Positions 17,151-37,898 of a stretch of 64,000 nucleotides of DNA are shown here, one piece after another. The notes beneath the pieces are model-generated. The model searched no databases. It had not been told where the DNA came from and saw nothing but the letters and a program-made list of their open reading frames with translations. The translations under genes were made by a program, and so were the position numbers. The number at the start of each line of letters is the position of its first letter. Position 1 is the stretch's first letter. The stretch comes from Hyphomicrobiales bacterium (lineage in GTDB: Bacteria; Pseudomonadota; Alphaproteobacteria; Rhizobiales; JACESI01): positions 11,409 to 75,408 of the forward strand of contig JACESI010000011.1 of NCBI GenBank assembly GCA_013911885.1. Reading direction: 5' to 3'.

Positions 17151-17370
17151 TGCAGTTTGCTGATGCAAATCTTGCCCGGTGAAAAGGGGCCTTTGAAAAA
17201 TATTCCTTGGTTAAAATCAAGTTAGAGTTGAGAAATAAAGACTTATTTTCAGCGCATACCGGCGTGCTGGAATAACGGAAATCAAGTTTATGAGGTTCAG
17301 GTGCCCGCGGCTATTGCCTCTCGACCACGCGTGTGGCAAAGGTCGGAACAAAGCTAAGTTGGGGAGCAGC

Positions 17371-20077: not shown

Positions 20078-20192
20078 GTGCTGTTTCAGCTACGACGCCC
20101 GCGAACCGGAAGATGTCGCATGACCGCTTGCGGGAAACCGCTTAGTGTTTAGAGTCTGGAAGTCGATTTTCACAAAGCCGGGATTTTTGCCG

Positions 20193-21446: not shown

Positions 21447-21455
21447 AGGTCAACC

Positions 21456-21833
21456 ATGTTCATCATCACCTGTCCCTATTGCGGTGCGCGCGATCAATCG
21501 GAATTCAGCAATGGCGGCGAGGCGCATATTGCCCGCCCCGAATGGCGCGATGCGATGACCGATGCCGAATGGGCGGATTTCGTTTTCATGCGCACGAACC
21601 GCAAGGGCGTCATCGCGGAGCGCTGGAACCATGCTGCCGGCTGCGGCAAATGGTTCAATGGTCTCAGGAACACGGCTACCGACCGGATCCTGGGCTTTTA
21701 CGAAATCGGCGCGAAGCCGCCGGAAATTGTCGATCAAACCCTGCCAACCCCGTCGGGCGAAATCACCGGGTCGGGCAATGATGCCGTGAAACTGATCGCG
21801 CACGATCGTGCCGCGCAGGGGGACAGACAATGA
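21456..21833 (+). CDS. soxD: Sarcosine oxidase, delta subunit
   Basis: MFIITCPYCGARDQSEFSNGGEAH... is the typical SoxD Zn-ribbon opening. Lies between soxB and soxA, with an ATGA overlap to soxA. Confidence 0.9.
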   Translation: MFIITCPYCGARDQSEFSNGGEAHIARPEWRDAMTDAEWADFVFMRTNRKGVIAERWNHAAGCGKWFNGLRNTATDRILGFYEIGAKPPEIVDQTLPTPSGEITGSGNDAVKLIAHDRAAQGDRQ

Positions 21834-24800
21834 GCACCTATCGACTTGACAAGGGCGGCCTGATCGACCGCACACAGCCTGTTCGCTTCTCGTTCGATGG
21901 GCGCAGCCAGCTCGGCTTCAAGGGCGATACCCTTGCCTCCGCGCTGATTGCAAACGGTCAGCACATGGTCGCGCGCTCGTTCAAATATCATCGCCCGCGC
22001 GGCATTCTGAGCGCCGGGCCCGAAGAACCGGCGGCCATCGTCCAGATTGGCGACGATCCTGCCCGCACCGACCCGAATATCCGGGTCACCGAGCAGGAGA
22101 TCTATGCCGGGCTTTCCGCCCGCTCGCAAAATGCCTGGCCCTCGCTCGAATTCGATATCGGTCGGGTGAATGATCTCGCCTGGCGCTTTCTGCCCGCCGG
22201 CTTCTATTACAAGACCTTCATGGGACCGCCCTTCGGCTGGATGAATTTCGAACCCTTCATCCGCGCAGCAGCAGGGCTCGGCAAGGCCCCGAGCGCGCCC
22301 GATCCGGACCGTTATGAGGTCACCAACCGCCATTGCGATGTGCTGATCATCGGTGCCGGTCCCGCGGGCCTGCGTGCCGCCGATGCGGCAAGTGCAGCCG
22401 GTGCCCGCGTTATCCTTTGCGATGAGGGCGCGATGCTGGGTGGGCAACTCCTGAGCGAAAGCGCCCTGACCACACTGAATGACGGCACGGCGCTCGATTT
22501 TGTCACGGAAACGGCAGCGACAATCGGCGCGCGAGACACTGTCACCGTTCTGACGCGGACCACCGCCTTTGGCTATTACGGCGAGAATTTCATCGGCCTC
22601 TGGGAGCGCGTGAGTGATCACCTCGCCCCATCCGAACGAGCGGCACGCGCGCCGCGCGAACGGGTCTGGCGGGTCAGGGCGCGTGAAGTGGTTCTTGCGA
22701 CCGGGGCGATCGAGCGCCCGATTGTTTTCCATGAAAACGACCGTCCCGGCATCATGCTCGCAAGCGCGGCACAGACCTATGCCATACGTTACGGTGTTCT
22801 GCCGGGGCGCACCATCTTGACCTTTGCAAACAACGATGCCGCCTGGATGAATGCCTTTGTGCTTCAGGATTCGGGTGCCCGCATCGCCGGGATCGCCGAT
22901 GCGCGCCCTTCGGTTGACGATGCGCTTCTTTCGCAAGCGGCGGCACGCGCAATCCCGGTGATGCAGCGTTCGGCTATTGTCGGCACCAGCGGCCAGGCAC
23001 GGGTGAAACAGGCGCTTGTGCGCAGCCTCGACAGCGCGTTGCAGCCGACCGGCGCGGTCCGGCCCGTTGATTGCGATCTCATCCTGGTTTCCGGGGGCTA
23101 CAACCCGAATGTGGCGCTGTTTTCACAATCCCGCGGACGGCTTGCCTATGATGCGGGTCTTGCCGCTTTCCGCCCGGCGGAATCCTTTCAGCGGGAGCGC
23201 TCCGCGGGCAGCTGCAACGGTGCTTTTTCCCTCGCCGATTGCCTTGCCGAGGGCGAGGCGGCAGGACGTGCGGCGGCTGAGGCCTGTGGTTTCAGCACAA
23301 AGGCGCTTGCCCCGCTTGCGCTTCCCATCCGCGAGCGCACCGCATCGAAAACCTATCCGCTCTGGGAGGTCCCGTCCGGCGGCAAGATCAGTCGCGCCTG
23401 GGTGGACCTTCAAAACGACGTCACCGCCAAGGATCTGAAACTCGCGGTGCAGGAAGGCTACACCTCGGTCGAACACGCCAAGCGCTATACCACGACGGGA
23501 ATGGGCACGGATCAGGGCAAGGTTGTCGGCATCAATGCTTTCGGAATTCTGGCCCAGACCATGGGCAAATCCATCCCGGAAGTGGGCGTCACGACCTATC
23601 GCCAGCCCTATAAGCCGGTGACCTTCGGCGCACTCGCGGGCCAGCATGTCGGGCCGCTGTTCCATCCCCGCCGCGGCACGCCGATGCATGAATGGCACCG
23701 GGAAAAGGGCGCGCATTTCGAGACCGTCGGCGAATGGCTGCGCGCCTGGGTCTATCCGAAGCCGGGTGAATCCTGGCAGCGTGCCGTCCAGCGCGAGGCG
23801 AAGGCCGCGCGAACCGGCATTGGTATTCTCGATGCGTCAACGCTTGGAAAGATCGACATTCGGGGGTCAGATGCGCGCGAATTCCTCAACCGGGTCTATA
23901 CCAATTCCTGGACAGGCCTCGCGCCCGGTCGCAGCCGGTACGGTCTGATGCTGAACGAAGACGGGATGGTGATCGATGATGGCGTGACAACCTGCCTTGC
24001 CGATGATCATTTCCATATGACGACGACGACCGGCGGTGCTGCGGCGGTGCTTTCTCATCTTGAGGATTATCTTCAGACAGAATGGACGGCGCTCGATGTT
24101 ACCTGCGTTTCCGTGACCGAGGAATGGGCGGTTGCCTCGATCTGCGGGCCGCACAGCCCGAAGCTGATTGCGGATCTGTTCGGCGAAGGCTTCGACCCGG
24201 AAACCATGCCCTTCATGTCGATGAAGGAGACCACGCTTGCCGGTATCCCGGTGCGTCTGTTCCGCATCTCGTTCACCGGTGAAATCTCCTACGAGATCAA
24301 CATTCCCGCCGATTATGGCCGCTGGCTCTGGGAGGTGCTGATGGAGGCGGGGGCGCCCTATGCGATTGCGCCCTATGGAACAGAGACCATGCATCTTCTG
24401 CGCGCGGAAAAAGGCTTCATCATCGTTGGTCAGGAAACCGACCGTACGGTAACGCCATATGATCTGCGCATGGACTGGATCGTGAGCCGGAAAAAGGGCG
24501 ATTTCATCGGCAAGCGCTCGCTTTTCCGCTCGGACACGATGCGTGAAGACAGGCGCCAGCTTGTCGGACTTCTGACAGAGGACGGGTCGGTTGTCGCCGA
24601 AGAGGGGGCACAGATCATCGCGACCGAGGCGGAACCCGCGCCGCCGGTGCCGATGATCGGCCATATCACCTCAAGCTATTACAGCCCGAACCTCAACCGG
24701 TCCATTGCCCTTGCCCTCGTGAAGGGCGGCGGCAAGCGTATGGGCGAGACGGTCTACATCACCCGCCGCGGTGCGGGTGCTCCGATCAAGGCAATTGTCG

Positions 24801-24838
24801 CGGAAGTCGATTTCATGGCGAAGAAAGAGGCAGAATGA
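21830..24838 (+). CDS. soxA: Sarcosine oxidase, alpha subunit
   Basis: 1002 aa. Dinucleotide fold DVLIIGAGPAGL and a C-terminal GcvT-like folate domain. Confidence 0.95.
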   Translation: MSTYRLDKGGLIDRTQPVRFSFDGRSQLGFKGDTLASALIANGQHMVARSFKYHRPRGILSAGPEEPAAIVQIGDDPARTDPNIRVTEQEIYAGLSARSQNAWPSLEFDIGRVNDLAWRFLPAGFYYKTFMGPPFGWMNFEPFIRAAAGLGKAPSAPDPDRYEVTNRHCDVLIIGAGPAGLRAADAASAAGARVILCDEGAMLGGQLLSESALTTLNDGTALDFVTETAATIGARDTVTVLTRTTAFGYYGENFIGLWERVSDHLAPSERAARAPRERVWRVRAREVVLATGAIERPIVFHENDRPGIMLASAAQTYAIRYGVLPGRTILTFANNDAAWMNAFVLQDSGARIAGIADARPSVDDALLSQAAARAIPVMQRSAIVGTSGQARVKQALVRSLDSALQPTGAVRPVDCDLILVSGGYNPNVALFSQSRGRLAYDAGLAAFRPAESFQRERSAGSCNGAFSLADCLAEGEAAGRAAAEACGFSTKALAPLALPIRERTASKTYPLWEVPSGGKISRAWVDLQNDVTAKDLKLAVQEGYTSVEHAKRYTTTGMGTDQGKVVGINAFGILAQTMGKSIPEVGVTTYRQPYKPVTFGALAGQHVGPLFHPRRGTPMHEWHREKGAHFETVGEWLRAWVYPKPGESWQRAVQREAKAARTGIGILDASTLGKIDIRGSDAREFLNRVYTNSWTGLAPGRSRYGLMLNEDGMVIDDGVTTCLADDHFHMTTTTGGAAAVLSHLEDYLQTEWTALDVTCVSVTEEWAVASICGPHSPKLIADLFGEGFDPETMPFMSMKETTLAGIPVRLFRISFTGEISYEINIPADYGRWLWEVLMEAGAPYAIAPYGTETMHLLRAEKGFIIVGQETDRTVTPYDLRMDWIVSRKKGDFIGKRSLFRSDTMREDRRQLVGLLTEDGSVVAEEGAQIIATEAEPAPPVPMIGHITSSYYSPNLNRSIALALVKGGGKRMGETVYITRRGAGAPIKAIVAEVDFMAKKEAE

Positions 24839-25443
24839 GTATCGTGAAAACACCCGTCGCCCGCTCCGTTCTCTCCCATCGCACAGCACTCGCCGGACAG
24901 GGGATTGCGCTTCGCGAGAAGCCGCATCTGCCGAAATGCATCTTGCGCGGAACAATGAAAAAGCTCGACAAACTGACCAAAACCGTGTGCGAACTCGCCG
25001 CGCCGAAGGCCGGCAAGACGAATGCGAACCGGGCAGGCGCGCTGCATTGGATCGGCCCCGACAGTCTGCTTTTTGTTGGTGACGATGTGGCGGCGATGAC
25101 AAAAGTCGAAGCACTTACTGCTCATGCCGCCCACGATTTTGCCCATGCGCGCGCTGTGAGCAACAATTATACCGTGATCGAATGTTCAGGCCCGAAGGCG
25201 CGAGACGCGCTCCAGAAGCTCGCATCGCTTGATCTTCATCCCTCGGTTTTCCGGACCGCAGATGTGGCCGGAACTGTTTTCGGCCACGCGAATGTCGTTC
25301 TCGCGGCACGAGGCGAGGCGGTGTTCGACATCATCATCCGGCGGTCCCATGCCGATTATATGTGGTGCCTGATTGCTAATGCCGGCTATGAATTCGGCCT
25401 GCCGAAGGAACTCCCCGTGAGCGGAGAGATCCTGCGGGCGTGA
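24835..25443 (+). CDS. soxG: Sarcosine oxidase, gamma subunit
   Basis: 202 aa, ATGA-coupled to soxA. Size and position fit SoxG. Confidence 0.8.
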   Translation: MSIVKTPVARSVLSHRTALAGQGIALREKPHLPKCILRGTMKKLDKLTKTVCELAAPKAGKTNANRAGALHWIGPDSLLFVGDDVAAMTKVEALTAHAAHDFAHARAVSNNYTVIECSGPKARDALQKLASLDLHPSVFRTADVAGTVFGHANVVLAARGEAVFDIIIRRSHADYMWCLIANAGYEFGLPKELPVSGEILRA

Positions 25444-25508: not shown

Positions 25509-27284
25509 TCAGGCGCTTTTCAGACGTTTCGCAAATTGTGCGCTCTCTTCAAGGAGGTTTTTTGCGTTTGTGCCGAGCCCTTGTGAAAGGTCGAGCATTT
25601 CCGCGATGGTAGTCTCCGCTTGCTGAACTGTGGCGGTGATTTCCGAAATCTGGCTGATCATCGTCTCTGCCGAGCGTGCCGACTGATTGAGCGACGTGTT
25701 CAGTTCGTCGGCGTTGCTGCGTTGCGCGGTTGTTTGGTCCGCCACCTTGTCTGATTGCGCCGCGAGTACAGAAATCGTTTCGGTAATCTTGGAAATTGCC
25801 GCAATCGCTTCGTTTGTAACCGATTGAATCTCTTCGGTCTGGGCTGAAATATCGACGGTCGCCCTTGATGTGCGGTCGGCGAGCTGCTTCACCTCCGAGG
25901 CAACGACCGAGAAGCCCTTACCTGCCTCGCCAGCACGCGCGGCTTCGATTGTCGCGTTAAGCGCGAGCAGGTTGGTCTGCTCCGCAACATCGCGAATAAG
26001 CTGAACCACTTCTCCGATCGACCGCGCACTGGTCGAAAGTTTGGCAAGGACCATGCCGGTCTGGCGCGCTTCTTCCGTTGCCGCATTGGCGGATTTGAGG
26101 GATTGCTGTGCGCTGTCGCCGATTTCCGCCACGACATTGTTCATTTTGCGCCCGAGGTCCGAGATCCGTTCGGCATGGGCTTTGACACTGACGCTTTCGC
26201 GCTCGGTCTGCATTGCCTTTTCGCTCGACAGGCGCGCGAGATTGGAGGTTTGAGCGCAGGAGGCACGCATGCGTTCGGCCTCACTCGAAAGCTGCTTTGC
26301 AAGACTGCCGACATTGGCATCAAACATGTCGGACATATCTTGAAGATTCTTGAGCGAGCGATCGAGTTTTTCTTTCTGCGCGCTGTTGTCCGCCTCGAGA
26401 TGCGAGCGCTCCCGCAAGACGGCCTGCATTTTTGCGATGGCACGGGCCACCACACCCACCTCGTCCTTGCGGTCCTGGTGCTCGATCGTGCCGCTGACAT
26501 TTCCCTCCAGAACATCGCCAATCCGGTTCGAGAGCGATTGAAGCGGAGCTGCAACGCCTTTGCTGATCACGAACAGAATACCGATCGCTATCGAGGATAA
26601 AGCGGCGATCGCTGCGATGATGCCAGTGGCGCGGCTTTGTCCCGCCGCAATGATGTCGGTGACATCGTTTTCAACTGTCACGACACCGCGCACGTCGCCA
26701 ACTTTCCAATCTTTCTTGGGCGAATCCGGATGGGCATTATGGCAAGCGACACAGCCCTCTTCCATGCGGTCGACGGTCGCAACGCGGATAAATTGCCTGC
26801 CATTGCGCTCGCTATACGCACTGATTGTCTTGTCCGGGTTTTGGACGAGTTCAGACCAGGCCTTCTGCTCGAAATCATCCATGGCCCGTCCATTGCGGCT
26901 CGGCCACGGATAGGGGCTCGCAATGCTGATCCGGTTTCCTGTGTCGAGCTGGCCTACGAAATCAAGGAGAAATGAAGTCGGAACCGGGATCGCGTTCAGT
27001 TTCTCTGCGGCGTCTGGTCCAAGGTTTGTGCCCTGCGCGGCCCTTACATGGCTGCTGACATTTGAGGAGTAGAATTTCCTGAGCGTTTTCAACTCATTAA
27101 CCGTCTTGATCGACTCAGCTGTGCTGATCGCGAAAGACGCGTTCTTGTAAGACGCCAAGAGATAGAAAAACAGGAACCCGATTAATAAGAAAAACAGGAT
27201 TGGAATCGGCAGGATTATTTTCCAGAAGAAGGAAAATTTTACCTTCGATTTCTCATCTTTGGCGACCGCATTGAATGTGTTCAT
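25509..27284 (-). CDS. Methyl-accepting chemotaxis protein with periplasmic c-type-haem (CxxCH) sensor domain
   Basis: TM1 at about aa 20-45 and TM2 at about aa 215-240. The periplasmic region contains CVACH (nt 26739-26753) in a DUF3365-like context (...[18 protein letters not shown]). HAMP plus the conserved MCP signalling hairpin ([32 protein letters not shown]). Confidence 0.9.
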
Positions 27285-27418: not shown

Positions 27419-29461
27419 TCAGGAGGAAGCGCGCTGGCGGCGGCGCGCCCGTGCCCCGCGCGTCGGATCGTCGTTGACCGCGCTGCGCTCCGGCAGGTTC
27501 ACGACACGTGCAAGATTCGGAAAGCTCTCCGTCTTGTTGGGCAGCGCCATCGCACTCACGAAATGGCGTTGGAAGTCTGGTTCGAGCGCGGTTTCGATCT
27601 TTTCGATCCGCCCGACCATGGTCTCGATTTCGCGCCGGTAGCTTTGGTTCAAAAGCGCCATGCGCGCCCCGGTCCCCGCCGCGTTGCCGACAGCGCTCAC
27701 CTGATCGAGCGGACAATCCGGGATCAGACCCAGAACCATCGCATATTTCGGGTCGATGAAATTGCCGAACGCGCCTGCAAGCTTGATCCGGCTCACATGA
27801 TCGACGCCGAGTTTGTCCATCAGCAGTTTGACGCCTGCATAAAGGGCGGCCTTGGCAAGTTGGATCGCGCGAACATCGGTCTGCCTGATCAGCAGGTCCG
27901 GATTACCGTTTTCACCGCGCCAGGCGACATAAGCGAACGTCCGGCCTTCCGCGATCACGCGGTCGGAGCGCGCAGCCATTGCGCCATCGATGATGCCGTC
28001 TTCGGTGATGATACCGGCAAGAAACATTTCAGCGATCGTCTCGATGATGCCGGAACCGCAAATTCCGGTGACGCCGGTCTGCTTGATCTCATCGGCAAAG
28101 CCGTCCTCATCCGACCATTTTTCCGATCCGATCACGCGAATGCGGGGTTCCAGCGTTTCCGTGTCGATGCGGATGCGCTCGATTGCGCCGGGTGCGGCGC
28201 GCTGGCCGCACGAGATCTCCGCCCCTTCGAAAGCCGGACCCGTGGGCGAGGAGGCGGCGACGGTGCGCGCCTTCGAGCCGAGGATGATTTCGGCATTCGT
28301 TCCGATGTCAACGAGGAGCGTGACCGCATCCTCTTCATAAGGCCGCTCGGCGAGTGTCGCTGCTGCGGCATCGGCCCCGACATGGCCGGCGATACAGGGC
28401 AGCATATAGACCCGCGCCCCAGGGTTAAGGTCGAGGCCGAGGGTGGCTGCCGGAAGATCGAGCGCCCCGGATAGCGCAAGCGCAAAAGGCGCCTGTCCGA
28501 GTTCGGTCGGGTCAAGTCCGAGAAAAAGATGATGCATGATCGGATTGCCGACAAAGACGGCTTCCAGAATATCGTTGCGCGCCACGCCGGACTGGCTGCA
28601 TATATCCTCGATCAGCCCGCTGATCGCCTCGCGCACGACACGGGTCAGCGCCGCATCGCCGCCGGGATTCATCATCACATAGGAGACCCGCGACATCAGG
28701 TCTTCGCCAAAGCGGATCTGCGGATTGGCAACACCGGCGGAAGCAAGGGTCTCGCCGGTCATCATGTCTGAGAGATGCATTGCGATGGTGGTGGAGCCGA
28801 TATCACAGGCAAGACCGTAAAGCGTCTCGCGATAGCCGGGCCAAAGTGCGGTCACTGTCGCGGTGTTCTTGCCTGCGTGGACAGCGGCGGTTACCGCCCA
28901 TTTGCCCTTGCGCAGGATTGTCTGCAGATCGCGGTAAAGGTGAAAATCAAGCGTGAGGTGCTCATAGCCCCATTCGTCCTCAAGGGTGCGCAAAAGCCGG
29001 TCGCTGTCGCCAAGCGGCTTGTGCATATCCGGCTCTTCGATCTCGACATAGTGCAGACGGGTCGCGGGGTCGCGGGCGATGATGCGGGTATCGACGGCCT
29101 TGCGCACCATCTGATTGTTGGCACTTGCTGCCTGCGGAATGTCGATGACGATGTCGCTGAGAATTCTCGACGAGCAGGAAAGCCGCCGGTCATCACCAAG
29201 ATCGCGCTTCGACTTGTAGCGCGCCTCGGTATCGGAAAAGGCTGAAAGGTGGTCAGCGCTCGAAATGATGCCGTGTTTAGCGAAATGACCTTCTGCAACG
29301 CTGACCTGGCATTTGCCGCAAATTCCGCGCCCACCGCAAACACTCTCGACATAAACCCCGAGCGTGCGGGCGGCCTCGAGTACGGGGGTGCCGATGGCGA
29401 CGCGACCGCGCTTGCCGGACGGCATGAAGAGGACAAGGGCGTTTTTCTGGCTCGTGGTCAT
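27419..29461 (-). CDS. Reductive activator of corrinoid proteins (RACo/RamA-like: plant-type 2Fe-2S ferredoxin + ASKHA ATPase, DUF4445)
   Basis: Start trimmed to ATG 29461 (MTTSQKNALVLFMPSGK...). N-terminal ferredoxin Cys pattern CGGRGICGKCQV. Large ASKHA-like body (DIGSTTIAMHL..., VDIGTNAEI...). Last enzyme gene of the corrinoid operon. Confidence 0.85.
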   Translation of the reverse strand: MTTSQKNALVLFMPSGKRGRVAIGTPVLEAARTLGVYVESVCGGRGICGKCQVSVAEGHFAKHGIISSADHLSAFSDTEARYKSKRDLGDDRRLSCSSRILSDIVIDIPQAASANNQMVRKAVDTRIIARDPATRLHYVEIEEPDMHKPLGDSDRLLRTLEDEWGYEHLTLDFHLYRDLQTILRKGKWAVTAAVHAGKNTATVTALWPGYRETLYGLACDIGSTTIAMHLSDMMTGETLASAGVANPQIRFGEDLMSRVSYVMMNPGGDAALTRVVREAISGLIEDICSQSGVARNDILEAVFVGNPIMHHLFLGLDPTELGQAPFALALSGALDLPAATLGLDLNPGARVYMLPCIAGHVGADAAAATLAERPYEEDAVTLLVDIGTNAEIILGSKARTVAASSPTGPAFEGAEISCGQRAAPGAIERIRIDTETLEPRIRVIGSEKWSDEDGFADEIKQTGVTGICGSGIIETIAEMFLAGIITEDGIIDGAMAARSDRVIAEGRTFAYVAWRGENGNPDLLIRQTDVRAIQLAKAALYAGVKLLMDKLGVDHVSRIKLAGAFGNFIDPKYAMVLGLIPDCPLDQVSAVGNAAGTGARMALLNQSYRREIETMVGRIEKIETALEPDFQRHFVSAMALPNKTESFPNLARVVNLPERSAVNDDPTRGARARRRQRASS

Positions 29462-29509
29462 GATCTCGATATGCCGATTTTCAGACGATCCGCAAGGCAA
29501 TCCTCTCGC

Positions 29510-30445
29510 CTAGGCACCGCCGACACGTCCCGCGCGCCCGCCACGGCGTCTGCCGCCCGTTGAGGCGGCATTCGGATCTGCGCCCGGTGTCGGCTCGCGG
29601 TAGGTTTTGATCCATGTGGCGCAATGTTCATCGGTCGACATCAGCACATTCGCCGCGCGCACCATTTCCATTTCCTGCGGGCGGCACGGGTTCATGATCG
29701 CCGATGTCATCCCCGAGGCAATCGCCATCGGCAGGAAAGCCGCGTTGATCGCATGGCGATGCGGCAGGCCGAAAGAAACATTCGAGGCACCGCAGGTGGT
29801 ATTGACGCCAAGTTCTTCGCGCAGGCGCCGCACAAGGCGGAAAACCTGAAGCCCGGCCGTGCCCATCGCGCCAATCGGCATGACCAGCGGATCGACAATG
29901 ATGTCATGCGGCTTGATGCCATAATCGGCGGCGTGCTCGACAATGCGCTTTGCGACTGCGAAACGCACGTCCGGGTCCTCGGAAATGCCGGTCTCGTCGT
30001 TCGAGATCGCAACAACCGGCACGTTGTATTTCTTGATCAAGGGAAGGATTGCCTCGAGCTTTTCGACCTCGCCGGTAACGGAGTTGACGAGGGGACGGCC
30101 TTCAGTGACCGCAAGTCCGGCAGCAAGGGCGGAAGTCACGGACGAATCGATGGAAATCGGAAGATTGGTGAGGCTCTGGACAAGTTTCAATGTCTGCACC
30201 AGAAGCGGCGGCTCGGTCTCGTTCGGGTTCACCGCCGTCACCCCGGCATTAACATCGAGCATTGTCGCGCCCGCGGCAACCTGTTCGAGCACATCCCTGG
30301 TCACCGTGTCGAAATTGCCGGCTTTCATTTCCTCGGCGAGCTTCTTGCGCCCGGTCGGGTTGATCCGCTCGCCGATGACGCAAAAAGGCTGGTCGAAACC
30401 GATATGGATTTCCCTGGATTTGGAGGCAACAAGCGTGCGCGTCAT
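29510..30445 (-). CDS. Methyltetrahydrofolate:corrinoid methyltransferase (pterin-binding/MtrH-like domain)
   Basis: Start trimmed to ATG 30445, preceded by AAGGA. Pterin-binding TIM-barrel signatures (VIGERINPTGRKKL, MLDVNAG, SIDS, NSV, GASNVSFGLP). Confidence 0.85.
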   Translation of the reverse strand: MTRTLVASKSREIHIGFDQPFCVIGERINPTGRKKLAEEMKAGNFDTVTRDVLEQVAAGATMLDVNAGVTAVNPNETEPPLLVQTLKLVQSLTNLPISIDSSVTSALAAGLAVTEGRPLVNSVTGEVEKLEAILPLIKKYNVPVVAISNDETGISEDPDVRFAVAKRIVEHAADYGIKPHDIIVDPLVMPIGAMGTAGLQVFRLVRRLREELGVNTTCGASNVSFGLPHRHAINAAFLPMAIASGMTSAIMNPCRPQEMEMVRAANVLMSTDEHCATWIKTYREPTPGADPNAASTGGRRRGGRAGRVGGA

Positions 30446-30514
30446 CGAAACATCCTTGCGATGGGGCGGTGGCCCGAAAGACACCGACACAGTGAAATTG
30501 GAAAGGGCGATGAA

Positions 30515-31444
30515 TCAGGCGTGGCCAGAGCTAGTTTCATTACCGTATAAAGATATCTTTATATTCCAACTTCCTCGTTGTGCAAGCCATTCCGCTGATT
30601 TATTTACACCGCCGAAGGGAAACACATGCATCTGTGCCACAGGCCCATCGGGATTTTCCTGCCAGAATTTTTCGATCGGCTTCACCACGGGTTCGGGGGA
30701 GGGTGTGGTCGCGAGAGCCGTCAGCGCGCCAGCGCGCTTTTTCAGGAATTTCATCGAGTTGCCGATACCGGCAATCGCAGCGAAGCGCAGCAGCGTCGTC
30801 ATCTTGGCCGGACCGGCGACACCGAGGTGGATCGGCAGGTTGATACCGATGGCCTTCACATGCCAGGCCCAGTTGGCAAAGGCCTCGCCGTCGAAACCAA
30901 ACTGCGTCACGATCCGCATTTGTGCATTGGTTTCGCTCTGGAAATCGGCCTTTTCCCTCAGGATTGGATAATCCTGGCCCTTTGGGGCCGAAGGGTTGCC
31001 TTCCGGGTGGCCGCCGACTGCGATGAATTTGATGCCGTTGCGCTCCATCACGCCAGAGCGCAGGATATCCATGGTCGAAGCATAGGGCCCCATCTGCCGG
31101 TTCGGTTCGCCCGCAACGATGAGTACGTCGTCAAGACCCGCCTCCTGTGTCAGTCGCTTGATGTGGCTTTCCAGTTCCGCGGCACTGTTGAGGCGGCGGG
31201 CGGCAATGTGCTGAACCGGGCGGTAACCGGCATCGGTCAACCGGCGGGCAACAGTCGCAAGCTCAAGATGGCTGTGATTGCCGATATCGGTGATGTAGGT
31301 TCGGGTGCCCGGCGGAAAAAGCCCGGCCGGGGCGCCTTCCGCCAGGATGGCCTTGGGTGAAATCTCGATCGAAGCCGGGATAAAGGCGTTTGCCGCGCTC
31401 ATTGGAATACTGCCGGGTGTAAGATCAAGCGCCTTGATCCCCAT
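30515..31444 (-). CDS. metF: Methylenetetrahydrofolate reductase (MetF family)
   Basis: ATG 31444 lies 8 nt downstream of a perfect GAGGAGG. About 309 aa with MetF-like segments (EISPKA..., GGHPEGNP..., QFGFD). Confidence 0.8.
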   Translation of the reverse strand: MGIKALDLTPGSIPMSAANAFIPASIEISPKAILAEGAPAGLFPPGTRTYITDIGNHSHLELATVARRLTDAGYRPVQHIAARRLNSAAELESHIKRLTQEAGLDDVLIVAGEPNRQMGPYASTMDILRSGVMERNGIKFIAVGGHPEGNPSAPKGQDYPILREKADFQSETNAQMRIVTQFGFDGEAFANWAWHVKAIGINLPIHLGVAGPAKMTTLLRFAAIAGIGNSMKFLKKRAGALTALATTPSPEPVVKPIEKFWQENPDGPVAQMHVFPFGGVNKSAEWLAQRGSWNIKISLYGNETSSGHA

Positions 31445-31766
31445 TTTCAAAACCTCCTCGTTCGATCAGCATTTTGACGCGCTCCTTCGGATACGCCGCC
31501 TCAATTGCTGCCGCCGCGCTCGCCGCCTCGGCTTCCAGATCGTCGCCGCAGGCTTCCGGATCGCTTTTGCGCCATTGTTCGAGATAGTCATCCGTCTGAT
31601 CGAGACCGGCGCGCATGGCGCAGGCATCAATCGCCGTGATGAACCGCTTGTCGAGTTCCCGCTTTGCACTGACCCGTCCGGCCTTGCAGATCACCTGCGC
31701 CGGAATGTCCCGCCAATAGACGATCACCTTCTGGGCGGCATTTCGGCTATTGCTGGAACGGGGCAT
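31425..31766 (-). CDS. Small conserved hypothetical protein, resembling the family annotated 'virulence factor' that co-occurs with metF/corrinoid MT genes
   Basis: 113-aa ORF with AGGAGG 7 nt upstream of ATG 31766. Its 3' end overlaps the metF start. The family assignment is from memory only. Confidence 0.6.
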   Translation of the reverse strand: MPRSSNSRNAAQKVIVYWRDIPAQVICKAGRVSAKRELDKRFITAIDACAMRAGLDQTDDYLEQWRKSDPEACGDDLEAEAASAAAAIEAAYPKERVKMLIERGGFENGDQGA

Positions 31767-31863
31767 TTCAAGACCTCCTGATATCGATGATAGCGCTTAC
31801 ATGCGCCGTTTTCTGATGCTGGCGCGACATGTCTGCGTCGGTTATAGAGCTTAGTCGGAATCC

Positions 31864-32598
31864 TTAAGGGCGCAAATCGGCAATTGCGGCTGAAAGGTCG
31901 CCATAGCCCGTCGGGCGGTGCTCGAACTCGAGCCCGAGTTTTGCAGCAATTGCCCGGGCCCGGTCAAGCAGGTCAGGGTCCTCGGCCTGCGACAAAAACA
32001 CAACTTTTTCATATGCGCCGAAATAGGCGTCGCGCAATTCCGGGTGGCGATCAAGGCCGAGCGGACGGAAGGTGAGGGCGTCGAAATGGCGGGCAAGAAA
32101 ATCAGTCAGAAAAAACGAACGCATATCCAGATCACCGCGTGCGGTGAACGCTTCGGCGCCGCTGAAAAACGCATAGCAATGCGCGCCGGGAAGGCGGGCA
32201 ACCCCCTCCTTTTCCAGAAGCGCATCAAGAAGGCCGCCCGTCCCGCAATCGGCGTAACCGCAGAACACGCTTGTGAACCCCGCAGCACGCGCCTCGGCAA
32301 TCGCGCGCGCCATCTCCGGCACGATTTTTTGCGGCGTGTTGTGGAGTTTGGCCGGAAGGCAGGTGAGCGCGACATGCTCAAGCCGGTTGATTGCCAATAT
32401 GTCGAGGATTTCGCGGGCCAGAGCCCCGCAGGCAATCACGCAGACCCGATCGGGCGTCGGCGCAAGCGTATAGGCGGGTGCGCCTTTTTCGATGAGAAAG
32501 TCGAAATCATTCGGCCGCAGTTCACCAATCCTGCCCGCCCGCCCGCCTTTGCGGGATGGGCGCGCGCGCCTCTCTCCCCCGCGCAGGTCGGGAGGCAT
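31864..32598 (-). CDS. DUF1638 domain-containing protein
   Basis: Core VCVIACGALAREI...CGYADCGTGG resembles DUF1638 proteins found in corrinoid methyltransferase clusters. I chose ATG 32598, 2 nt after the corrinoid-protein stop. The track ORF extends to a TTG at 32676, so the start is uncertain. Confidence 0.7.
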   Translation of the reverse strand: MPPDLRGGERRARPSRKGGRAGRIGELRPNDFDFLIEKGAPAYTLAPTPDRVCVIACGALAREILDILAINRLEHVALTCLPAKLHNTPQKIVPEMARAIAEARAAGFTSVFCGYADCGTGGLLDALLEKEGVARLPGAHCYAFFSGAEAFTARGDLDMRSFFLTDFLARHFDALTFRPLGLDRHPELRDAYFGAYEKVVFLSQAEDPDLLDRARAIAAKLGLEFEHRPTGYGDLSAAIADLRP

Positions 32599-32600
32599 CG

Positions 32601-33299
32601 TCAGGAAGCGCGGCTGTTGTGGCGTCGCGCGATCAGATTTTTCGCGGTTTCGACAGCCACGGCCGCGTCCCGGCAATAAGCATCAGCGCCAACGGCCGCA
32701 CCGAATTCCTCGTTGAGTGGTGCGCCACCGACAAGCACGATATAATCATCGCGAATGCCGATTGCCTTCATCTGGTCGATCACGACCTTCATATAGGGCA
32801 TGGTCGTCGTCAGCAGCGCCGACATGCCAAGAATATCCGGTTTGTGCTCATTGAGGGCTGCGATGAATTCGTCGGCGTCGGTGTTGATGCCGAGATCATA
32901 AACATCAAAGCCCGCACCTTCCATCATCATGCCGACCAGGTTCTTGCCGATATCGTGAATATCGCCCTTGACCGTGCCCGTCACCATCGAGCCGAGCTTC
33001 GGCGCGCCGGTTTCAACGAGAAGCGGACGCAGGATGAACATGCCCGCTTTCATAGCATTGGCGGCGAGAAGCACTTCCGGCACGAACAGAATACCGTCGC
33101 GAAAATCATTGCCGACAATCCGCATACCCTCGACCAATGATTTGGTGAGAACGTCATAAGGCGTCCATCCGCGCTCCAGAAGGATGTTGGTCCCCTCTTC
33201 GATTTCCTCTTTGAGGCCATCGTAAAGATCATCCATCATTTGTGCGACAAGGTCATCGTCGGAGAGTTCGGAAAGAATAATTTCATCTTCATCGGACAT
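32601..33299 (-). CDS. Corrinoid (cobalamin-binding) methyl-carrier protein (B12-cap + Rossmann B12-binding domain)
   Basis: 232 aa. Contains the base-off/His-on DxHxxG motif (GDIHDIGKNLV) followed by SALLTTT and GGAP(L), as in MtgC/MtbC/MetH cobalamin domains. Confidence 0.9.
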   Translation of the reverse strand: MSDEDEIILSELSDDDLVAQMMDDLYDGLKEEIEEGTNILLERGWTPYDVLTKSLVEGMRIVGNDFRDGILFVPEVLLAANAMKAGMFILRPLLVETGAPKLGSMVTGTVKGDIHDIGKNLVGMMMEGAGFDVYDLGINTDADEFIAALNEHKPDILGMSALLTTTMPYMKVVIDQMKAIGIRDDYIVLVGGAPLNEEFGAAVGADAYCRDAAVAVETAKNLIARRHNSRAS

Positions 33300-33321
33300 A
33301 GCGGCGGTCTTTCGGGATCTG

Positions 33322-33346
33322 GCACGATCAGACTGAATAATCGTGC
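33322..33346. promoter_or_regulatory. Inverted repeat GCACGAT-N11-ATCGTGC in the divergent corrinoid-protein/mttB control region (candidate operator)
   Basis: Read directly. Lies 23 nt upstream of the corrinoid-protein ATG. Its function is not established. Confidence 0.3.
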
Positions 33347-33561
33347 GTAATCATTTCTCTTTGAAGCTGCAAGCAAAACCATTCCAAAGCCAGAGAAATA
33401 GCGTAGCGCTGATTTTGCCCGGAAAGTGTGTGTGGCGCGGCACGACAGGGCGCAAATAAGCTATTGCGGAAAACTGGCATCTCTAGTCTGAATAGGCGAA
33501 GCACGGCGACCGACCGCCACAGGCAAGCGCATGCAAAACTTTATCAGACGGGCAAGAATCG

Positions 33562-35118
33562 ATGGCTGACCCTTCAGAATCGGAGACACCGCAGGCAGGC
33601 CGACGCAGCGGCGGCAGAAACGCGCGCCATGCAGCCCGTATCAGCGGCGCAATGGTCAAGAACTCCTACATAAGGCGCAAGATCCCAGCCTATGAGGTGT
33701 TCGATGAAGAAGGCGTTGCGATCATCGAAAACAACGCCGATATCATTCTGGAAGAGATCGGAATCGAGTTCCGCGATGACCCTGAATCGGTTTCGATGTG
33801 GCGCGCTGCGGGCGCGCATATCGACGGTGAACGCGTTCGCTTTCCGAAAGGCATGTTGCGCGAACTGATCCGCACCGCGCCGCGGGAATTCACCCAGTTT
33901 GCGCGCAATCCGGCCCGATCGGTCCAGATCGGCGGCAACAACACCGTGTTCGCGCCGGTCTATGGCCCGCCTTTCGTGCGCACGCTCGAAGGCGAAAGAC
34001 GCTATGCGACCATTGAGGATTTCCGCTCATTCGTGAAACTCGCCTATCTCGCTCCCGCCATGCACCATTCCGGTGGCACGGTGTGCGAGCCTGTCGATAT
34101 CCCGGTCAACAAGCGTCATCTCGATATGGTCTACAGCCATATCCGCTATTCCGATATGCCGTTCATGGGTTCGGTGACTGCCCCTGAACGGGCGCAGGAT
34201 TCGGTTGATATGGCGAAACTCGTTTTCGGCGCGGATTTTGTCGATCAGAACTGCGTTCTGCTCAATCTCATCAACGTCAACTCGCCGATGACTTATGACG
34301 CGACCATGCTCGGCTCCGCCAAGGTCTACGCCCGCAACAACCAGGCCTGCGTGATTTCGCCGTTCATTCTGGCGGGCGCCATGTCGCCGGTGACGGCGGC
34401 GGCGACCCTGACCCAGATCCTTGCCGAGGCGATGGCGGGTATGGCCTTCACCCAGCTCTGCCGGCCCGGCGCGCCTGTCGTCTTCGGCACATTCGCAAGC
34501 TCGATCTCGATGCAATCCGGCGCACCGACCTTCGGCACGCCCGAACCGGCAATGGTGCTTTATGGCGCAGCCCAGCTTGCCCGACGGCTTGGCGTTCCGT
34601 TCCGTTCAGGTGGCTCGCTCTGCGGGTCCAAAGTCGTGGACGCGCAGGCCGCCTATGAAAGCGCACAGACGATCACCCCGACGCTTCTTGCCGGAACCAA
34701 TTTCGTGCTCCACGCCGCGGGCTGGCTCGAGGGGGGGCTTGTCTCCTCATTCGAGAAATTCGTGATGGATTGCGATCAGCTCGGCATGATGCAGGCAATG
34801 GCGGGCGGCATTGACCTGACGGAAAACGGCCAGGGCCTTTCTGCCTTGCGCGAAGTCGGGCCGGGCGCTCATTTTCTCGGCTGTGCGCACACGCAGGCGA
34901 ATTTCCAGACCGCGTTTTATCGGTCGAGCCTTGCCGACAACAATTCCTATGAGCAATGGCTCGCGGATGGCGAGAACCGGATCGAGGATCGTGCCCGCAA
35001 ATCCTGCCGCAAGATGCTCGACGAATATCAGGCCCCCGCGCTCGATATCGCCGTCGATTCAGCGCTTATCGACTTCATCGACCAGAAAAAGCGCTCGATG
35101 CCCGATGCCTTCACGTGA
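33562..35118 (+). CDS. MttB-superfamily methyltransferase, non-pyrrolysine member (quaternary-amine:corrinoid methyltransferase candidate)
   Basis: Uninterrupted 518-aa ORF with no in-frame TAG. TIM-barrel MttB-like sequence throughout (YEVFDEEG...IENNADIILEEIGIEF..., NSPMTYD, FILAGAMSPVT, GAPTFGTPE). Divergent from the corrinoid-protein operon. Confidence 0.9.
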   Translation: MADPSESETPQAGRRSGGRNARHAARISGAMVKNSYIRRKIPAYEVFDEEGVAIIENNADIILEEIGIEFRDDPESVSMWRAAGAHIDGERVRFPKGMLRELIRTAPREFTQFARNPARSVQIGGNNTVFAPVYGPPFVRTLEGERRYATIEDFRSFVKLAYLAPAMHHSGGTVCEPVDIPVNKRHLDMVYSHIRYSDMPFMGSVTAPERAQDSVDMAKLVFGADFVDQNCVLLNLINVNSPMTYDATMLGSAKVYARNNQACVISPFILAGAMSPVTAAATLTQILAEAMAGMAFTQLCRPGAPVVFGTFASSISMQSGAPTFGTPEPAMVLYGAAQLARRLGVPFRSGGSLCGSKVVDAQAAYESAQTITPTLLAGTNFVLHAAGWLEGGLVSSFEKFVMDCDQLGMMQAMAGGIDLTENGQGLSALREVGPGAHFLGCAHTQANFQTAFYRSSLADNNSYEQWLADGENRIEDRARKSCRKMLDEYQAPALDIAVDSALIDFIDQKKRSMPDAFT

Positions 35119-35235
35119 AAGGCAGGCGATGCCGTTCCGAGGATCGCGCAATCGGAAGGGTTCAAGCTGCACTATGAGGTGGTGCGAAGAGCGTTCAAGC
35201 CCTACGAATAAGAGCTTTGCCTGGATTGAAAAACC

Positions 35236-36273
35236 TCAGGCTTCTGCCCGTCGGCGCCCGCGACGTTCGCGGCGCGGTGCGGTACCATCATCTCTTGCCG
35301 GCGGCGCGACGAGTTTGCCGATTTTCTCGACAATTGCCTCAATCGTCGGACGCTCCGCGCGCTGATAGCGGTCGAGCGCATCACGCATGGCTTTCACATG
35401 CTCGGGCTTTGTCCCGCAACAGCCGCCAATGATCCGCACACCTGCATCCGCCGCCATGGCGATATAATCAGCCATGAGATCGGGGGTGCCGGTATAGACC
35501 GTGGTCGCGCCTTTGACGACGGGAATGCCGCAATTTGCTTTGGCGACAATGATCGCTTCCGGCGCAGCATCGGTCATTGACAGGACCGAGACCAGAAGAT
35601 CGGAAGCCCCGACGCCGCAATTCGCGCCAAAGGCAAGCGGCTTGCCGGGAAGGGCATGTGCGAGTTCCGCAAGGGCTGCCGGAGCGAGACCCATCATGGT
35701 CTTTCCTGCCGTGTCGAAACTCGCGGTGAAGACATAGGCAATGCCGACCTCGACCGCTGCTTCCGCAGCCGCCTGAATTTCGTCGGCGGCAGACATTGTT
35801 TCGATCCACGCGACATCGGCGCCGCCATCCTTGAGGCCACGCATCTGTTCTTTGAAGGCATTGCGTGCGTCGGTCAGTGTCATCGCGCCGAGCGGCACGA
35901 AAAGTTCGCCGGTCGGGCCGACTGAACCGGCGACAATCACCGGCCGCTCCGCCTTTTCCGCCACACGGGAGGCAATTTCCGCGCCGGCCCGGTTGATTTC
36001 ATAGGTTTGATTTTCCGCCTTGTGCAATTTCAGGCGCGGCGCGTTGGCACCGAATGTGTTGGTCAGAATGATATCCGAACCTGCATCGACAAACATCTGA
36101 TGCAGGGCTTCCGGCTTGTGCGGCTCGCTGACATTCCAAAGATCCGGTGGAAACCCCGGCTCCAGCCCCATTTCCATGAAATTGGTCCCGGTCGCTCCAT
36201 CGGCGAGAAGGATCTGCTTTTCATTCAAAAGCGCTTGAAGCGAGCTGCGCATGGCGATTGTCCGTTTCGTCAA
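35236..36273 (-). CDS. Homocysteine S-methyltransferase-domain protein (MetH N-terminal module / BHMT-like)
   Basis: 345 aa. Hcy-binding barrel (LLADGATGTN..., IILTNTFGAN) with zinc-ligand cysteines (NCG... and GGCCGT). Confidence 0.85.
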   Translation of the reverse strand: MTKRTIAMRSSLQALLNEKQILLADGATGTNFMEMGLEPGFPPDLWNVSEPHKPEALHQMFVDAGSDIILTNTFGANAPRLKLHKAENQTYEINRAGAEIASRVAEKAERPVIVAGSVGPTGELFVPLGAMTLTDARNAFKEQMRGLKDGGADVAWIETMSAADEIQAAAEAAVEVGIAYVFTASFDTAGKTMMGLAPAALAELAHALPGKPLAFGANCGVGASDLLVSVLSMTDAAPEAIIVAKANCGIPVVKGATTVYTGTPDLMADYIAMAADAGVRIIGGCCGTKPEHVKAMRDALDRYQRAERPTIEAIVEKIGKLVAPPARDDGTAPRRERRGRRRAEA

Positions 36274-36410
36274 GAGATGACATAAGGATATAAGAAAATC
36301 TTTATGTGAAGTTCTGGCTTTATCATAACTCTGCCCTTACTTGCAAAAAGAATCCTTTGCAGTGAATAAGAAATTGTGTGAGCTGAACCCTTGGCAAGAC
36401 AGGCGCGACC

Positions 36411-37898
36411 ATGGCCGAAAACGAGAATACCGCAATTCAGCATACCGAAAACCCGCTCCCGCAGGAGCCGAACCGGATGGAGCGGCTTGCGGTTCTGCCG
36501 GTGTTCTGGAAGCTTGCCGGGCGGCGGGTGCTGCTTGCGGGTGGTTCGCAGGGCGCGGCATGGAAAGCGGAACTTCTCGCAGCGAGCGGTGCGCATGTTC
36601 TGCTGGTTTCGCCCACGATTTCTGATGAAATGGCGGCCCTGATCACGCGCGGTGCGGCGGAGGGCATGATCACCCATGCAGCGCGCCCCTGGTCGATCCA
36701 TGATTTCACAAATATCGCGCTCGCGCTCGCCGATCCTGAAACCGATGCTGAGGCGCAAGCTTTTTACTGCGCGGCAAAGGCTGCGAAAGTGCCGGTCAAT
36801 GTGATCGACAATCCGAAATATTGCGAATTTCAGTTCGGCACGATCGTGAACCGGTCGCCGGTCGTTGTCGGTATATCGACGGATGGTGCAGCGCCGATCC
36901 TCGGTCAGGCGATCCGTCGCAAGATCGAGACGCTTCTGCCCGCGGCACTCGCCGAGGCCGGCGCGCTCGCCAAGGCATTCCGCACCACGCTTCAGGAGCT
37001 TGTACCGGACAAACCCGCACGCCGGATTTTCTGGGAAGGCTTCGTCGAGCGCGCTTTCAGGGCTGAAAAGGTGGATGAGACTGTTCTGCTCGCCATGGCA
37101 AAGCAAACCGCAAGGGGTGCCGAGCATGAACGCGCGGGCTTTGTCTCTCTCGTCGGCGCCGGGCCGGGAGATGCCGATCTTCTGACCGTCAAGGCGATCC
37201 GGGTGCTTCAGGGTGCGGATGTCATTCTTTTCGACGATCTTTCCTCGCCCGCGATTCTCGAGCTTGCCCGCCGTGAAGCGGACCGTCTTTATGTCGGCAA
37301 GCGTGGCGGGCGGAAATCCTGCAGCCAGGTCGAAATCAACCGTATGATGGTTGATCTTGCCCGCGCCGGTAAACGCGTCGTTCGGTTGAAAGGTGGCGAT
37401 CCGATGATTTTCGGCCGCGCCGGCGAGGAAATCAGCGATCTCATCGCGGCAGAAATTCCGTTTGAAGTCGTCCCCGGTGTGACAGCTGCCTCGGGCGCGG
37501 CGGCGAGCATCGGTGTCTCGCTCACCCATCGCGACCACGCCCAGTCGGTGCGCTTCGTCACCGGCCATTCGAAAAGCGGCAAAGTGCCGGAAAACCTTCA
37601 CTGGCAGGGCATGGCATCCGGCGATACGACGCTTGTGTTTTACATGGCAAGCCGCACCGGCCATGAAGTATCGGCCAATCTCATGAAACACGGCATGGAC
37701 GGGCAGACACCGGTCGTCATCGTTGCGAATGTTAGCCGTGACAATGAGCGCGTCTGGAAGGGCACGCTTGCGACGCTCACCGATGGCATCAATGCTGTTT
37801 CACGGGGTGATCCGGTCGTGATCGGAGTCGGGACCGTGTTCTCGCTATATGAGCCGGGGCGGATGCTGCCGTTTCAACTGCCGCTCGCAGCCGAGTGA
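36411..37898 (+). CDS. cysG: Siroheme synthase (precorrin-2 dehydrogenase/ferrochelatase + uroporphyrinogen-III C-methyltransferase)
   Basis: N-terminal Rossmann fold (VLLAGGSQGA) and C-terminal SUMT domain (VSLVGAGPGDADLLTVKA..., VRLKGGDPMIFGR). The start could instead be the internal ATG at 36477. Confidence 0.9.
   Translation: MAENENTAIQHTENPLPQEPNRMERLAVLPVFWKLAGRRVLLAGGSQGAAWKAELLAASGAHVLLVSPTISDEMAALITRGAAEGMITHAARPWSIHDFTNIALALADPETDAEAQAFYCAAKAAKVPVNVIDNPKYCEFQFGTIVNRSPVVVGISTDGAAPILGQAIRRKIETLLPAALAEAGALAKAFRTTLQELVPDKPARRIFWEGFVERAFRAEKVDETVLLAMAKQTARGAEHERAGFVSLVGAGPGDADLLTVKAIRVLQGADVILFDDLSSPAILELARREADRLYVGKRGGRKSCSQVEINRMMVDLARAGKRVVRLKGGDPMIFGRAGEEISDLIAAEIPFEVVPGVTAASGAAASIGVSLTHRDHAQSVRFVTGHSKSGKVPENLHWQGMASGDTTLVFYMASRTGHEVSANLMKHGMDGQTPVVIVANVSRDNERVWKGTLATLTDGINAVSRGDPVVIGVGTVFSLYEPGRMLPFQLPLAAE

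Follow-up and report, generated by a model that had tools for sequence, protein, structure and literature searches.

A 64,000-nucleotide stretch of DNA from an uncultured Hyphomicrobiales bacterium (the window; positions 11,409 to 75,408 of contig JACESI010000011.1, assembly GCA_013911885.1; the contig is an 84-kb metagenome scaffold, HARO18-1_SAMN15220988 scaffold_144) carries a compact cluster of methyltransferase genes. We interpret this cluster, with a probability of roughly 0.8, as an MtgBCDE-type cobalamin-dependent methyl-transfer system of an uncultured alphaproteobacterium that probably belongs to the Hyphomicrobiales. What the locus shows directly is which genes it contains, their motifs and homologies, and the conservation of their synteny. 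The original prediction, made from the sequence of the window, had proposed a hybrid of a betaine demethylase and a split methionine synthase. This idea is supported by our analysis, and it is equivalent to the MtgBCDE model that has been published independently with genetics in Ruegeria pomeroyi and Phaeobacter inhibens. As an experimental description of this system from marine bacteria appeared in 2025, we regard the locus as a new and unusually compact example of it rather than a discovery, and because the basic idea is already in print, the finding itself raises no new question.

Gene content of the corrinoid cluster

We defined the genes of the window by listing open reading frames (ORFs), calling genes, and scanning their products against Pfam and NCBIfam. 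The core of the cluster is a minus-strand operon. It begins with mtgC, which encodes a stand-alone, cobalamin-binding corrinoid protein of 232 residues (32601-33299), and continues with genes for a DUF1638 protein (31864-32598), a 113-residue protein of the PF13769 'Virulence_fact' family (31425-31766), a methylenetetrahydrofolate reductase (MTHFR)-like protein, MetF2 (30515-31444), the pterin-binding methyl-tetrahydrofolate (THF):corrinoid methyltransferase MtgD (29510-30445), and an ATP-dependent corrinoid reductive activator of the RACo/RamA type (27419-29461). Divergent from mtgC, across a 262-bp intergenic region (33300-33561), lies a plus-strand, mtgB-like gene of the non-pyrrolysine MttB superfamily (33562-35118), referred to here as mttB. 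Convergent with mttB, and separated from it by 117 bp, is the minus-strand gene mtgE (also called bmt; 35236-36252), which encodes a stand-alone homocysteine S-methyltransferase. Every element named in the original prediction was recovered by these scans and gene calls, the PF13769 protein being its 'small unknown'. The span it gave needs some adjustment, as several of its starts were those of the longest ORFs and the called genes are shorter.

The system is complete, with all six types of module and their catalytic motifs in place. MtgC combines a B12-binding_2 domain (PF02607) with a B12-binding domain (PF02310) and contains the motif DIHDIG at residues 113-118. Its nearest NCBIfam models are those of MtgC-type corrinoid proteins, every one scoring below its cut-off, and its matches in the PDB include 1Y80 (190 bits), MttC (137 bits), and the B12 domain of MetH (~100 bits). 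The protein is 79-90% identical to its counterparts in related loci. MtgD matches PF00809 (107.6 bits) and NF005719 (385.4 bits, cut-off 259), with the folate domain of Thermotoga maritima MetH (131.6 bits) and MeTr/AcsE (115-123 bits) as its top PDB matches. In the activator, the 2Fe-2S ferredoxin (PF00111, Fer2), linker (PF17650, RACo_linker), middle (PF17651, Raco_middle), and C-terminal ASKHA (PF14574, RACo_C_ter, 299.9 bits) domains are all present, and cysteines are found at positions 42, 48, 51, and 96. It scores 407 bits against the AcsV model and 107 bits against the RamA model, both under the respective cut-off.

MtgE matches PF02574 (208.5 bits) and passes the NCBIfam model for betaine--homocysteine S-methyltransferase (NF005718, 487 bits, cut-off 338). 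Its Zn-ligand cysteines are Cys212, within the sequence ANCG, and Cys278/279, within GGCCGT, and it scores 155 bits against the homocysteine domain of MetH compared to 52 bits against human BHMT. The cluster does not contain a canonical MetH: the modules are separate genes, PF02965 is missing, and metH models score far under their cut-offs.

The MttB homolog is a 518-residue ORF without an internal stop that matches PF06253 at 770 bits. At its active site there is no in-frame UAG codon for pyrrolysine; instead, Leu353 (codon CTC) aligns with the pyrrolysine of Methanosarcina barkeri MttB (7XCL), so the protein is not a member of the pyrrolysine-dependent group. Consistent with this, a PDB search placed it closest to a 'putative trimethylamine methyltransferase' from Sinorhizobium meliloti (4YYC; E 9e-252, 74% identity) and to MtgB of Desulfitobacterium hafniense (2QNE/9YCE; E ~1e-120, 42% identity), whereas the M. 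barkeri pyrrolysine enzyme matched at 110 bits and 23% identity. All that a homolog search with the same protein yielded were near-identical proteins labeled 'trimethylamine methyltransferase family', and the characterized members from R. pomeroyi, P. inhibens, and Eubacterium were absent from its results.

Substrate and direction of methyl transfer

The original prediction held that neither the substrate nor the direction of the pathway could be read from the sequence. This is true only in part, since the betaine-binding residues of MttB and the neighboring genes point to glycine betaine, and the type of the MTHFR points to oxidation of methyl-THF (CH3-THF). Picking et al. (2026, PMC13080624) used mutagenesis and a structure with bound betaine to show that Y97, F356, R312, and H348 of D. 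hafniense MtgB bind glycine betaine. When the window protein is aligned to this enzyme, with an offset of +2 applied to the residue numbers of the 9YCE chain, Y97, R312, H348, and F356 correspond to Y134, R348, H384, and G392. Three of the four betaine-binding residues are therefore kept. The carboxylate-binding pair R312/H348 is present as R348/H384, and in the cation-pi pair Y97/F356 the tyrosine is retained as Y134 while the phenylalanine is replaced by Gly392, with a tryptophan, Trp388, one helical turn earlier. Y134, R348, H384, G392, and W388 are invariant across 81/81 orthologs.

A second MttB paralog lies close to the cluster in 11 related loci (L036, L040, L045, L048, L049, L055, L057, L060, L062, L068, and L076), ~8-10 kb from the mttB ortholog and with 36-42% identity. 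In these paralogs, Arg, His, Trp, and Gly are kept at the equivalent sites, but Gly or Ser stands where MtgB has Y97, and they probably act on a different substrate. The orthogroup of the window protein is 42-45% identical to D. hafniense MtgB, compared to 37% for the paralogs.

On the far side of the operon from mttB, the window encodes what appears to be the remainder of a betaine pathway. A plus-strand folD (12880-13836; PF00763 and PF02882) encodes a methylene-THF dehydrogenase/cyclohydrolase. It is followed by a plus-strand gene for a dimethylglycine/sarcosine dehydrogenase-type enzyme (14473-17088; DAO-FAO_M-GCV_T-GCV_T_C), hereafter DMGDH-type, whose class is taken from its Pfam architecture, as no NCBIfam equivalog reached its cut-off. 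Next come a minus-strand, GbdR-like regulator of the AraC family (18962-20077; DJ-1/PfpI and HTH_18), for which GbdR is the best NCBIfam model (369 bits, under the cut-off of 480), and the plus-strand soxBDAG genes for a heterotetrameric sarcosine oxidase (20145-25443). Pfam domains identify the parts of the latter as soxB (DAO), a SoxD-like ORF (21456-21833), SoxA (Fer2_4, SO_alpha_A3, and GCV_T), and SoxG. Because the betaine-binding residues are kept and the DMGDH-type gene, soxBDAG, the GbdR-like regulator, and folD lie alongside, glycine betaine is probably the substrate of MttB. Given these DMGDH-type, soxBDAG, and folD neighbors, all three demethylations from glycine betaine to glycine, together with oxidation of the C1 units, could be encoded within ~25 kb. 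We infer that the host is an aerobe because a heterotetrameric sarcosine oxidase is encoded next to the operon and the relatives are aerobic.

The MTHFR-like protein suggests which way the pathway runs. MetF2 matches PF02219 weakly (27.9 bits) but aligns well to the MTHFR of Sphingobium lignivorans SYK-6, S6MTHFR (PDB 7XG9; E 1e-51, 179.5 bits), with which it clusters by score; the best canonical MTHFR structure reaches 23.5 bits and no other scores higher. S6MTHFR is a type-4 enzyme that oxidizes CH3-THF, does not use NADH, and is the partner of THF-methylating demethylases (Yu et al. 2025, PMC11868366). The signature of this type consists of L48-P49 in loop b2-a3, F215/C219 in helix a8, P268-F269-G-G in loop b8-a11, and R78 (PMC11868366). 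R84, F221, and the F275-P276-F277-G-G loop of MetF2 match R78, F215, and Y267-P268-F269-G-G of S6MTHFR. MetF2 is accordingly predicted, from its resemblance to S6MTHFR, to oxidize CH3-THF to methylene-THF (CH2-THF). If the MTHFR is of this methyl-THF-oxidizing type, as predicted, the pathway would run in a catabolic as well as an anabolic direction.

We base the proposed chemistry, substrate, and directions on experimental work with homologs from R. pomeroyi, P. inhibens, D. hafniense, and Sphingobium. In the catabolic direction, MtgB would demethylate a carboxylated quaternary amine, of which glycine betaine is the most probable, and load the methyl group onto Co(I) of MtgC, leaving dimethylglycine. 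MtgD would pass this methyl group from MtgC to THF, the type-4 MetF2 would oxidize the resulting CH3-THF to CH2-THF, and FolD with downstream enzymes would see to the oxidation or assimilation of the C1 unit. The two remaining methyl groups would be removed by the DMGDH-type enzyme, for the second demethylation, and by SoxBDAG, for the last. In the anabolic direction, MtgD would work in reverse, moving the methyl group of CH3-THF to MtgC, and MtgE would then convert homocysteine to methionine, so that the set would act as a split MetH. The RACo/RamA-like protein, together with the DUF1638 protein, would repair the carrier, spending ATP to bring Co(II) back to Co(I). Additionally, MtgC methylated by MttB may hand its methyl group straight to MtgE, which would amount to a B12-mediated methyl transfer from betaine to homocysteine that does not involve THF.

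Conservation, accessory proteins, and regulation

We scanned a genome collection with the MttB protein, which yielded 80 loci at 71-86% identity, and then searched these with the window proteins by tblastn. The closest loci come from metagenome-assembled genomes (MAGs) of Hyphomicrobiales, followed by Ahrensia, Hoeflea, Pararhizobium, Ensifer, Mesorhizobium, Phyllobacterium, Aminobacter, Minwuia, and others; the proteins of the Ensifer loci (L038, L050, and L077) are 74-75% identical to MttB of the window. Uncoupling of mttB from the operon in relatives had been named in the original prediction as an outcome that would speak against it. Instead, mtgC is adjacent and divergent to mttB in 66/75 loci with enough flanking sequence. 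Furthermore, mtgC and the genes for DUF1638, PF13769, MtgD, and RACo are all found upstream of mttB in 52/64 loci, and mtgE lies downstream of mttB, at a distance of <=10 kb, in 42/62. Since mtgC-mttB adjacency holds in 66 of 75 loci and the five operon genes occur together in 52 of 64, the arrangement of the cluster is not due to chance.

An independent set of 80 metagenome loci (L083-L162), anchored on the PF13769 protein, gives a broader view of the operon. In this set, the DUF1638 gene is upstream of the PF13769 gene in 44/49 loci and mtgD is downstream in 39/44. Adjacency of mttB to mtgC was seen in just 10/24 loci, with mttB within 3 kb in 4 more, and the core operon therefore extends beyond its pairing with mttB. 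The position occupied by metF2 in the window is variable. Among 59 related operons, a type-4 gene fills this slot in 25, including the window, and a pair of MetF and MetV-like (PF12225) genes fills it in 34 (for example, L014 4203-6052, minus strand); the two never occur together. Some metagenome loci have no MTHFR at all, and others have yet another, divergent one (32-35% identity). Regardless of the type of MTHFR, and even where none is present, PF13769 is tied to the arrangement mtgC-DUF1638-...-mtgD-RACo, and it is found in most mttB-anchored loci.

The two accessory proteins of the operon have few recognizable features. The DUF1638 protein (PF07796, 81.6 bits) has seven residues that are invariant in 34 homologs, C56, C79, H85, D116, C117, H139, and C140. 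The invariance of the four cysteines at 56, 79, 117, and 140 and of His85 and His139 suggests a metal or Fe-S site. Its AlphaFold2 model has a predicted local distance difference test score (pLDDT) of 83.8 and a disordered N terminus, and a Foldseek search of this model against the PDB gave no significant match (best E ~0.01, to generic alpha/beta folds). The first ~45 residues of the protein as called are basic, have low pLDDT, and are missing from most homologs. For these reasons, the true start may be further downstream, in which case the N-terminal ~45 residues would not be translated. The PF13769 protein (84.7 bits to its family) contains an invariant YWRDIPAQ motif. It is modeled confidently (pLDDT 85.5), and its model found no fold match in the PDB by Foldseek (best E ~1). 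Sequence searches of the PDB with the PF13769 and DUF1638 proteins likewise returned no match.

DUF1638 has been linked genetically to B12 reactivation in P. inhibens (PMC5764234), while Mausz et al. (PMC12478193) make no mention of the PF13769 protein, the word 'virulence' occurring 0 times in their text. The PF13769 protein and the Cys/His-rich DUF1638 protein could load, protect, or re-reduce the corrinoid under oxic conditions. We put forward only tentatively, and taken as a pair regard as rather doubtful, two separate proposals: that PF13769 is an undescribed, conserved part of the aerobic corrinoid operon, and that methyl groups travel from MttB through MtgC to MtgE without passing through THF.

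The intergenic region between mtgC and mttB contains a conserved sequence that may be involved in regulation. It is a 17-bp motif, GCG(C/A)CA-N5-TGGCGC, whose copy in the window lies at 33437-33453 (GCGGCACGACAGGGCGC). With <=2 mismatches allowed, it occurs in 50/66 orthologous intergenic regions (from loci L008-L082), compared to 1.3 expected from shuffled sequences, and in most cases it is located ~115-140 bp upstream of where mttB starts. This motif is probably a shared operator, to judge from its conservation and placement, and the GbdR-like protein (18962-20077) is a candidate for its regulator. Scans for sigma-70 promoter and intrinsic-terminator consensus sequences between 27 and 38 kb found nothing beyond shuffled expectation. 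An Rfam scan of the whole window matched no family, from which we conclude that the window has no cobalamin riboswitch.

Several other features of the window deserve mention. A cysG gene for siroheme synthase/uroporphyrinogen-III methylase (PF00590, PF13241, PF10414, and PF14824) is located next to mtgE, as the original prediction had stated, and corresponds to the plus-strand ORF at 36411-37898. A minus-strand ORF at 36270-37691, which overlaps this gene, was rejected as cysG because it has no Pfam match. Of the relatives examined, only the closest (L006) also has cysG beside mtgE. A minus-strand gene for a methyl-accepting chemotaxis protein (25509-27284), with a Tll0287-like sensor domain and HAMP, separates soxG from the RACo gene; the closest syntenic relative (L004) lacks it. 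The interval from the DMGDH-type gene to the GbdR-like regulator contains a gene for a MOSC-domain protein (17290-18222) and a 246-residue ORF that matches no family (18225-18965). The region at 54001-56000 shows a dip in GC content (0.43 compared to ~0.58 elsewhere) and includes an ORF without a Pfam match (54125-55288); it may be a recently acquired insert. Among the scanned ORFs of the window there was no metH, metE, or gbcAB.

Relation to published systems and alternative explanations

The closest published counterparts are the MtgBCDE systems of R. pomeroyi DSS-3 and of P. inhibens, which have the same set of modules as the window, including a RamA-like activator, DUF1638, and a second MetF, and for which the same dual role in an aerobe has been proposed. 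Mutation of mtgC or mtgD makes R. pomeroyi auxotrophic for methionine, and even with added methionine the mutants neither grow on glycine betaine nor use it (Mausz et al. 2025, PMC12478193). During growth on betaine, the MtgB paralogs, MtgC, MtgD, MetF2, RamA, and DUF1638 increase in this organism and MtgE decreases (PMC12478193). Mutants of P. inhibens in mtgB1, mtgC, and gbcAB extend the model, and a double mutant in mtgB1 and gbcAB does not grow on betaine (Hammer et al. 2025, bioRxiv 10.64898/2025.12.19.695462). The view in the original prediction that all characterized non-pyrrolysine MttB members come from strict anaerobes is outdated by these two systems. The window differs from them in its host, an uncultured Hyphomicrobiales-like MAG, and in its layout. 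All of its parts are gathered in one 9-kb cluster near the DMGDH-type, sox, GbdR-like, and folD genes, whereas those of R. pomeroyi are scattered and marine mtgE genes usually lie apart (PMC12478193). In S. meliloti, Mausz et al. report that the genes for MtgBCDE, both reactivation genes, and the cobalamin genes are co-located (PMC12478193).

Other systems share parts of this logic. The MtgABC system of D. hafniense (MtgB is DSY3156) also combines a corrinoid protein, a methyl-corrinoid:THF methyltransferase, and a RamA-type activator. However, D. hafniense is a strict anaerobe whose carrier serves no homocysteine module, F356 of its MtgB is not kept in the window, and its corrinoid protein is reported to belong to a different clade (Mausz et al., PMC12478193). 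The split methionine synthase of P. inhibens was defined together with the RamA-like protein and DUF1638, whose mutants are methionine auxotrophs (Price et al. 2018, PMC5764234). Like the window, it has separate homocysteine, pterin, and B12 modules, a RamA-like protein (Fer2 and DUF4445/RACo), and DUF1638, but it was described as purely anabolic and without an MttB partner or MTHFR, both of which the window has. S6MTHFR of S. lignivorans SYK-6 shares with MetF2 a setting downstream of a THF-methylating demethylase, although its partners are LigM, DesA, or Dmt rather than an MttB-type corrinoid system. Finally, the CmuAB chloromethane pathway of Methylorubrum extorquens CM4 is, like the window, an aerobic alphaproteobacterial corrinoid route in which CH3-THF is passed to a type-4 MTHFR and FolD (PMC11868366), and the corrinoid domain of CmuA is close to aerobic MtgC (Mausz et al., PMC12478193). 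It differs in its methyl donor and first methyltransferase and in having no homocysteine branch.

Some of our observations weigh against identifying the locus as a glycine betaine-using MtgBCDE system. The fourth betaine-binding residue of D. hafniense MtgB, F356, corresponds to Gly392, and the nearby Trp388 may or may not substitute for it. In a small neighbor-joining tree, the window orthogroup clusters with proteobacterial paralogs (88/100) and D. hafniense MtgB falls outside; as the orthogroup is not the specific sister of this enzyme, phylogeny on its own does not fix the substrate. Three of the S6MTHFR residues that have been discussed in connection with NADH exclusion or contact with the substrate (PMC11868366) are changed in MetF2, namely L48 (I54), P49 (G55), and C219 (A225). 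Additionally, the likeness to the tested genes SPO2160/1863/2108/2134 and PGA1_RS07270 is one of module set, and the sequence orthology shown is that with the S. meliloti/Ensifer cluster.

The glycine at position 392 and the shape of the tree also fit a reading in which the same machinery serves another quaternary amine (proline betaine, carnitine, gamma-butyrobetaine, choline, or something similar) and glycine betaine is handled elsewhere. MttB-family members that conserve R312/H348 act on various carboxylated quaternary amines (PMC13080624), and several MttB paralogs can be present per genome (PMC12478193). We nevertheless consider a different substrate unlikely, as the tyrosine equivalent to Y97 is invariant in the orthogroup but Gly or Ser in the neighboring paralogs, the orthogroup is closer than those paralogs to D. 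hafniense MtgB, the DMGDH-type, soxBDAG, and GbdR-like genes are directly alongside, and the co-located S. meliloti cluster was assigned to MtgBCDE by Mausz et al. (PMC12478193). It is far less probable that the operon is a purely anabolic, three-part methionine synthase with reactivation proteins and that the adjacent MttB is unrelated or inactive. A CH3-THF-oxidizing MTHFR within the operon, as MetF2 is predicted to be, would make no sense for such an enzyme, mttB and mtgC are adjacent in most related loci and share a conserved intergenic motif, and both the betaine phenotype of the R. pomeroyi mtgC and mtgD mutants in the presence of methionine (PMC12478193) and that of the P. inhibens mtgB1 gbcAB double mutant (Hammer et al. 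2025) run counter to it. These outweigh the methionine auxotrophy that was the sole phenotype of the P. inhibens split-MetH genes under the conditions tested (PMC5764234) and the separation of mttB from mtgC in 10 of 24 PF13769-anchored metagenome loci and in R. pomeroyi (PMC12478193).

A last alternative concerns MtgE and is compatible with the MtgBCDE model. This protein could act mainly, and with physiological importance, as a stand-alone, cofactor-independent betaine (or dimethylsulfoniopropionate, DMSP):homocysteine methyltransferase. It passes the NCBIfam model for betaine--homocysteine S-methyltransferase, as noted above, and bmt of S. meliloti was first described as such an enzyme, according to the citation in PMC12478193. 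In vitro, the homolog purified from P. inhibens needed neither THF nor B12 to produce methionine when given betaine or DMSP (PMC12366255). That assay, however, used 200 uM enzyme for 2 h (PMC12366255), so that it demonstrates only a very low turnover. MtgE of the window is also far nearer to the homocysteine domain of MetH than to human BHMT, proteins of the S. meliloti type do not have the betaine-binding residues of BHMT (Mausz et al., PMC12478193), and loss of bmt does not prevent S. meliloti from growing on betaine if methionine is provided (PMC12478193). On these grounds, a main role of this kind for MtgE seems somewhat improbable, though less so than a change of substrate for MttB.

As an MtgBCDE-type system, the locus offers three features that possibly go beyond published accounts: the operon-conserved PF13769 protein, the alternative MTHFR modules in a single slot, and the 17-bp intergenic motif. 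The novelty that remains lies in the uncharacterized accessory proteins and in a possible direct passage of methyl groups from betaine to homocysteine on the corrinoid. More broadly, the cluster extends B12-dependent betaine demethylation, sharing its carrier with methionine synthesis, to uncultured Hyphomicrobiales-like bacteria. It does so in the most compact form, with the predicted betaine-to-glycine pathway, C1 oxidation, a GbdR-like regulator, and the reactivation proteins all within ~25 kb. Owing to this compactness, the cluster is convenient for reconstitution, as are those of cultured relatives (Hoeflea, Ahrensia, Mesorhizobium, and Ensifer), and the locus helps to assign roles to DUF1638 and PF13769.

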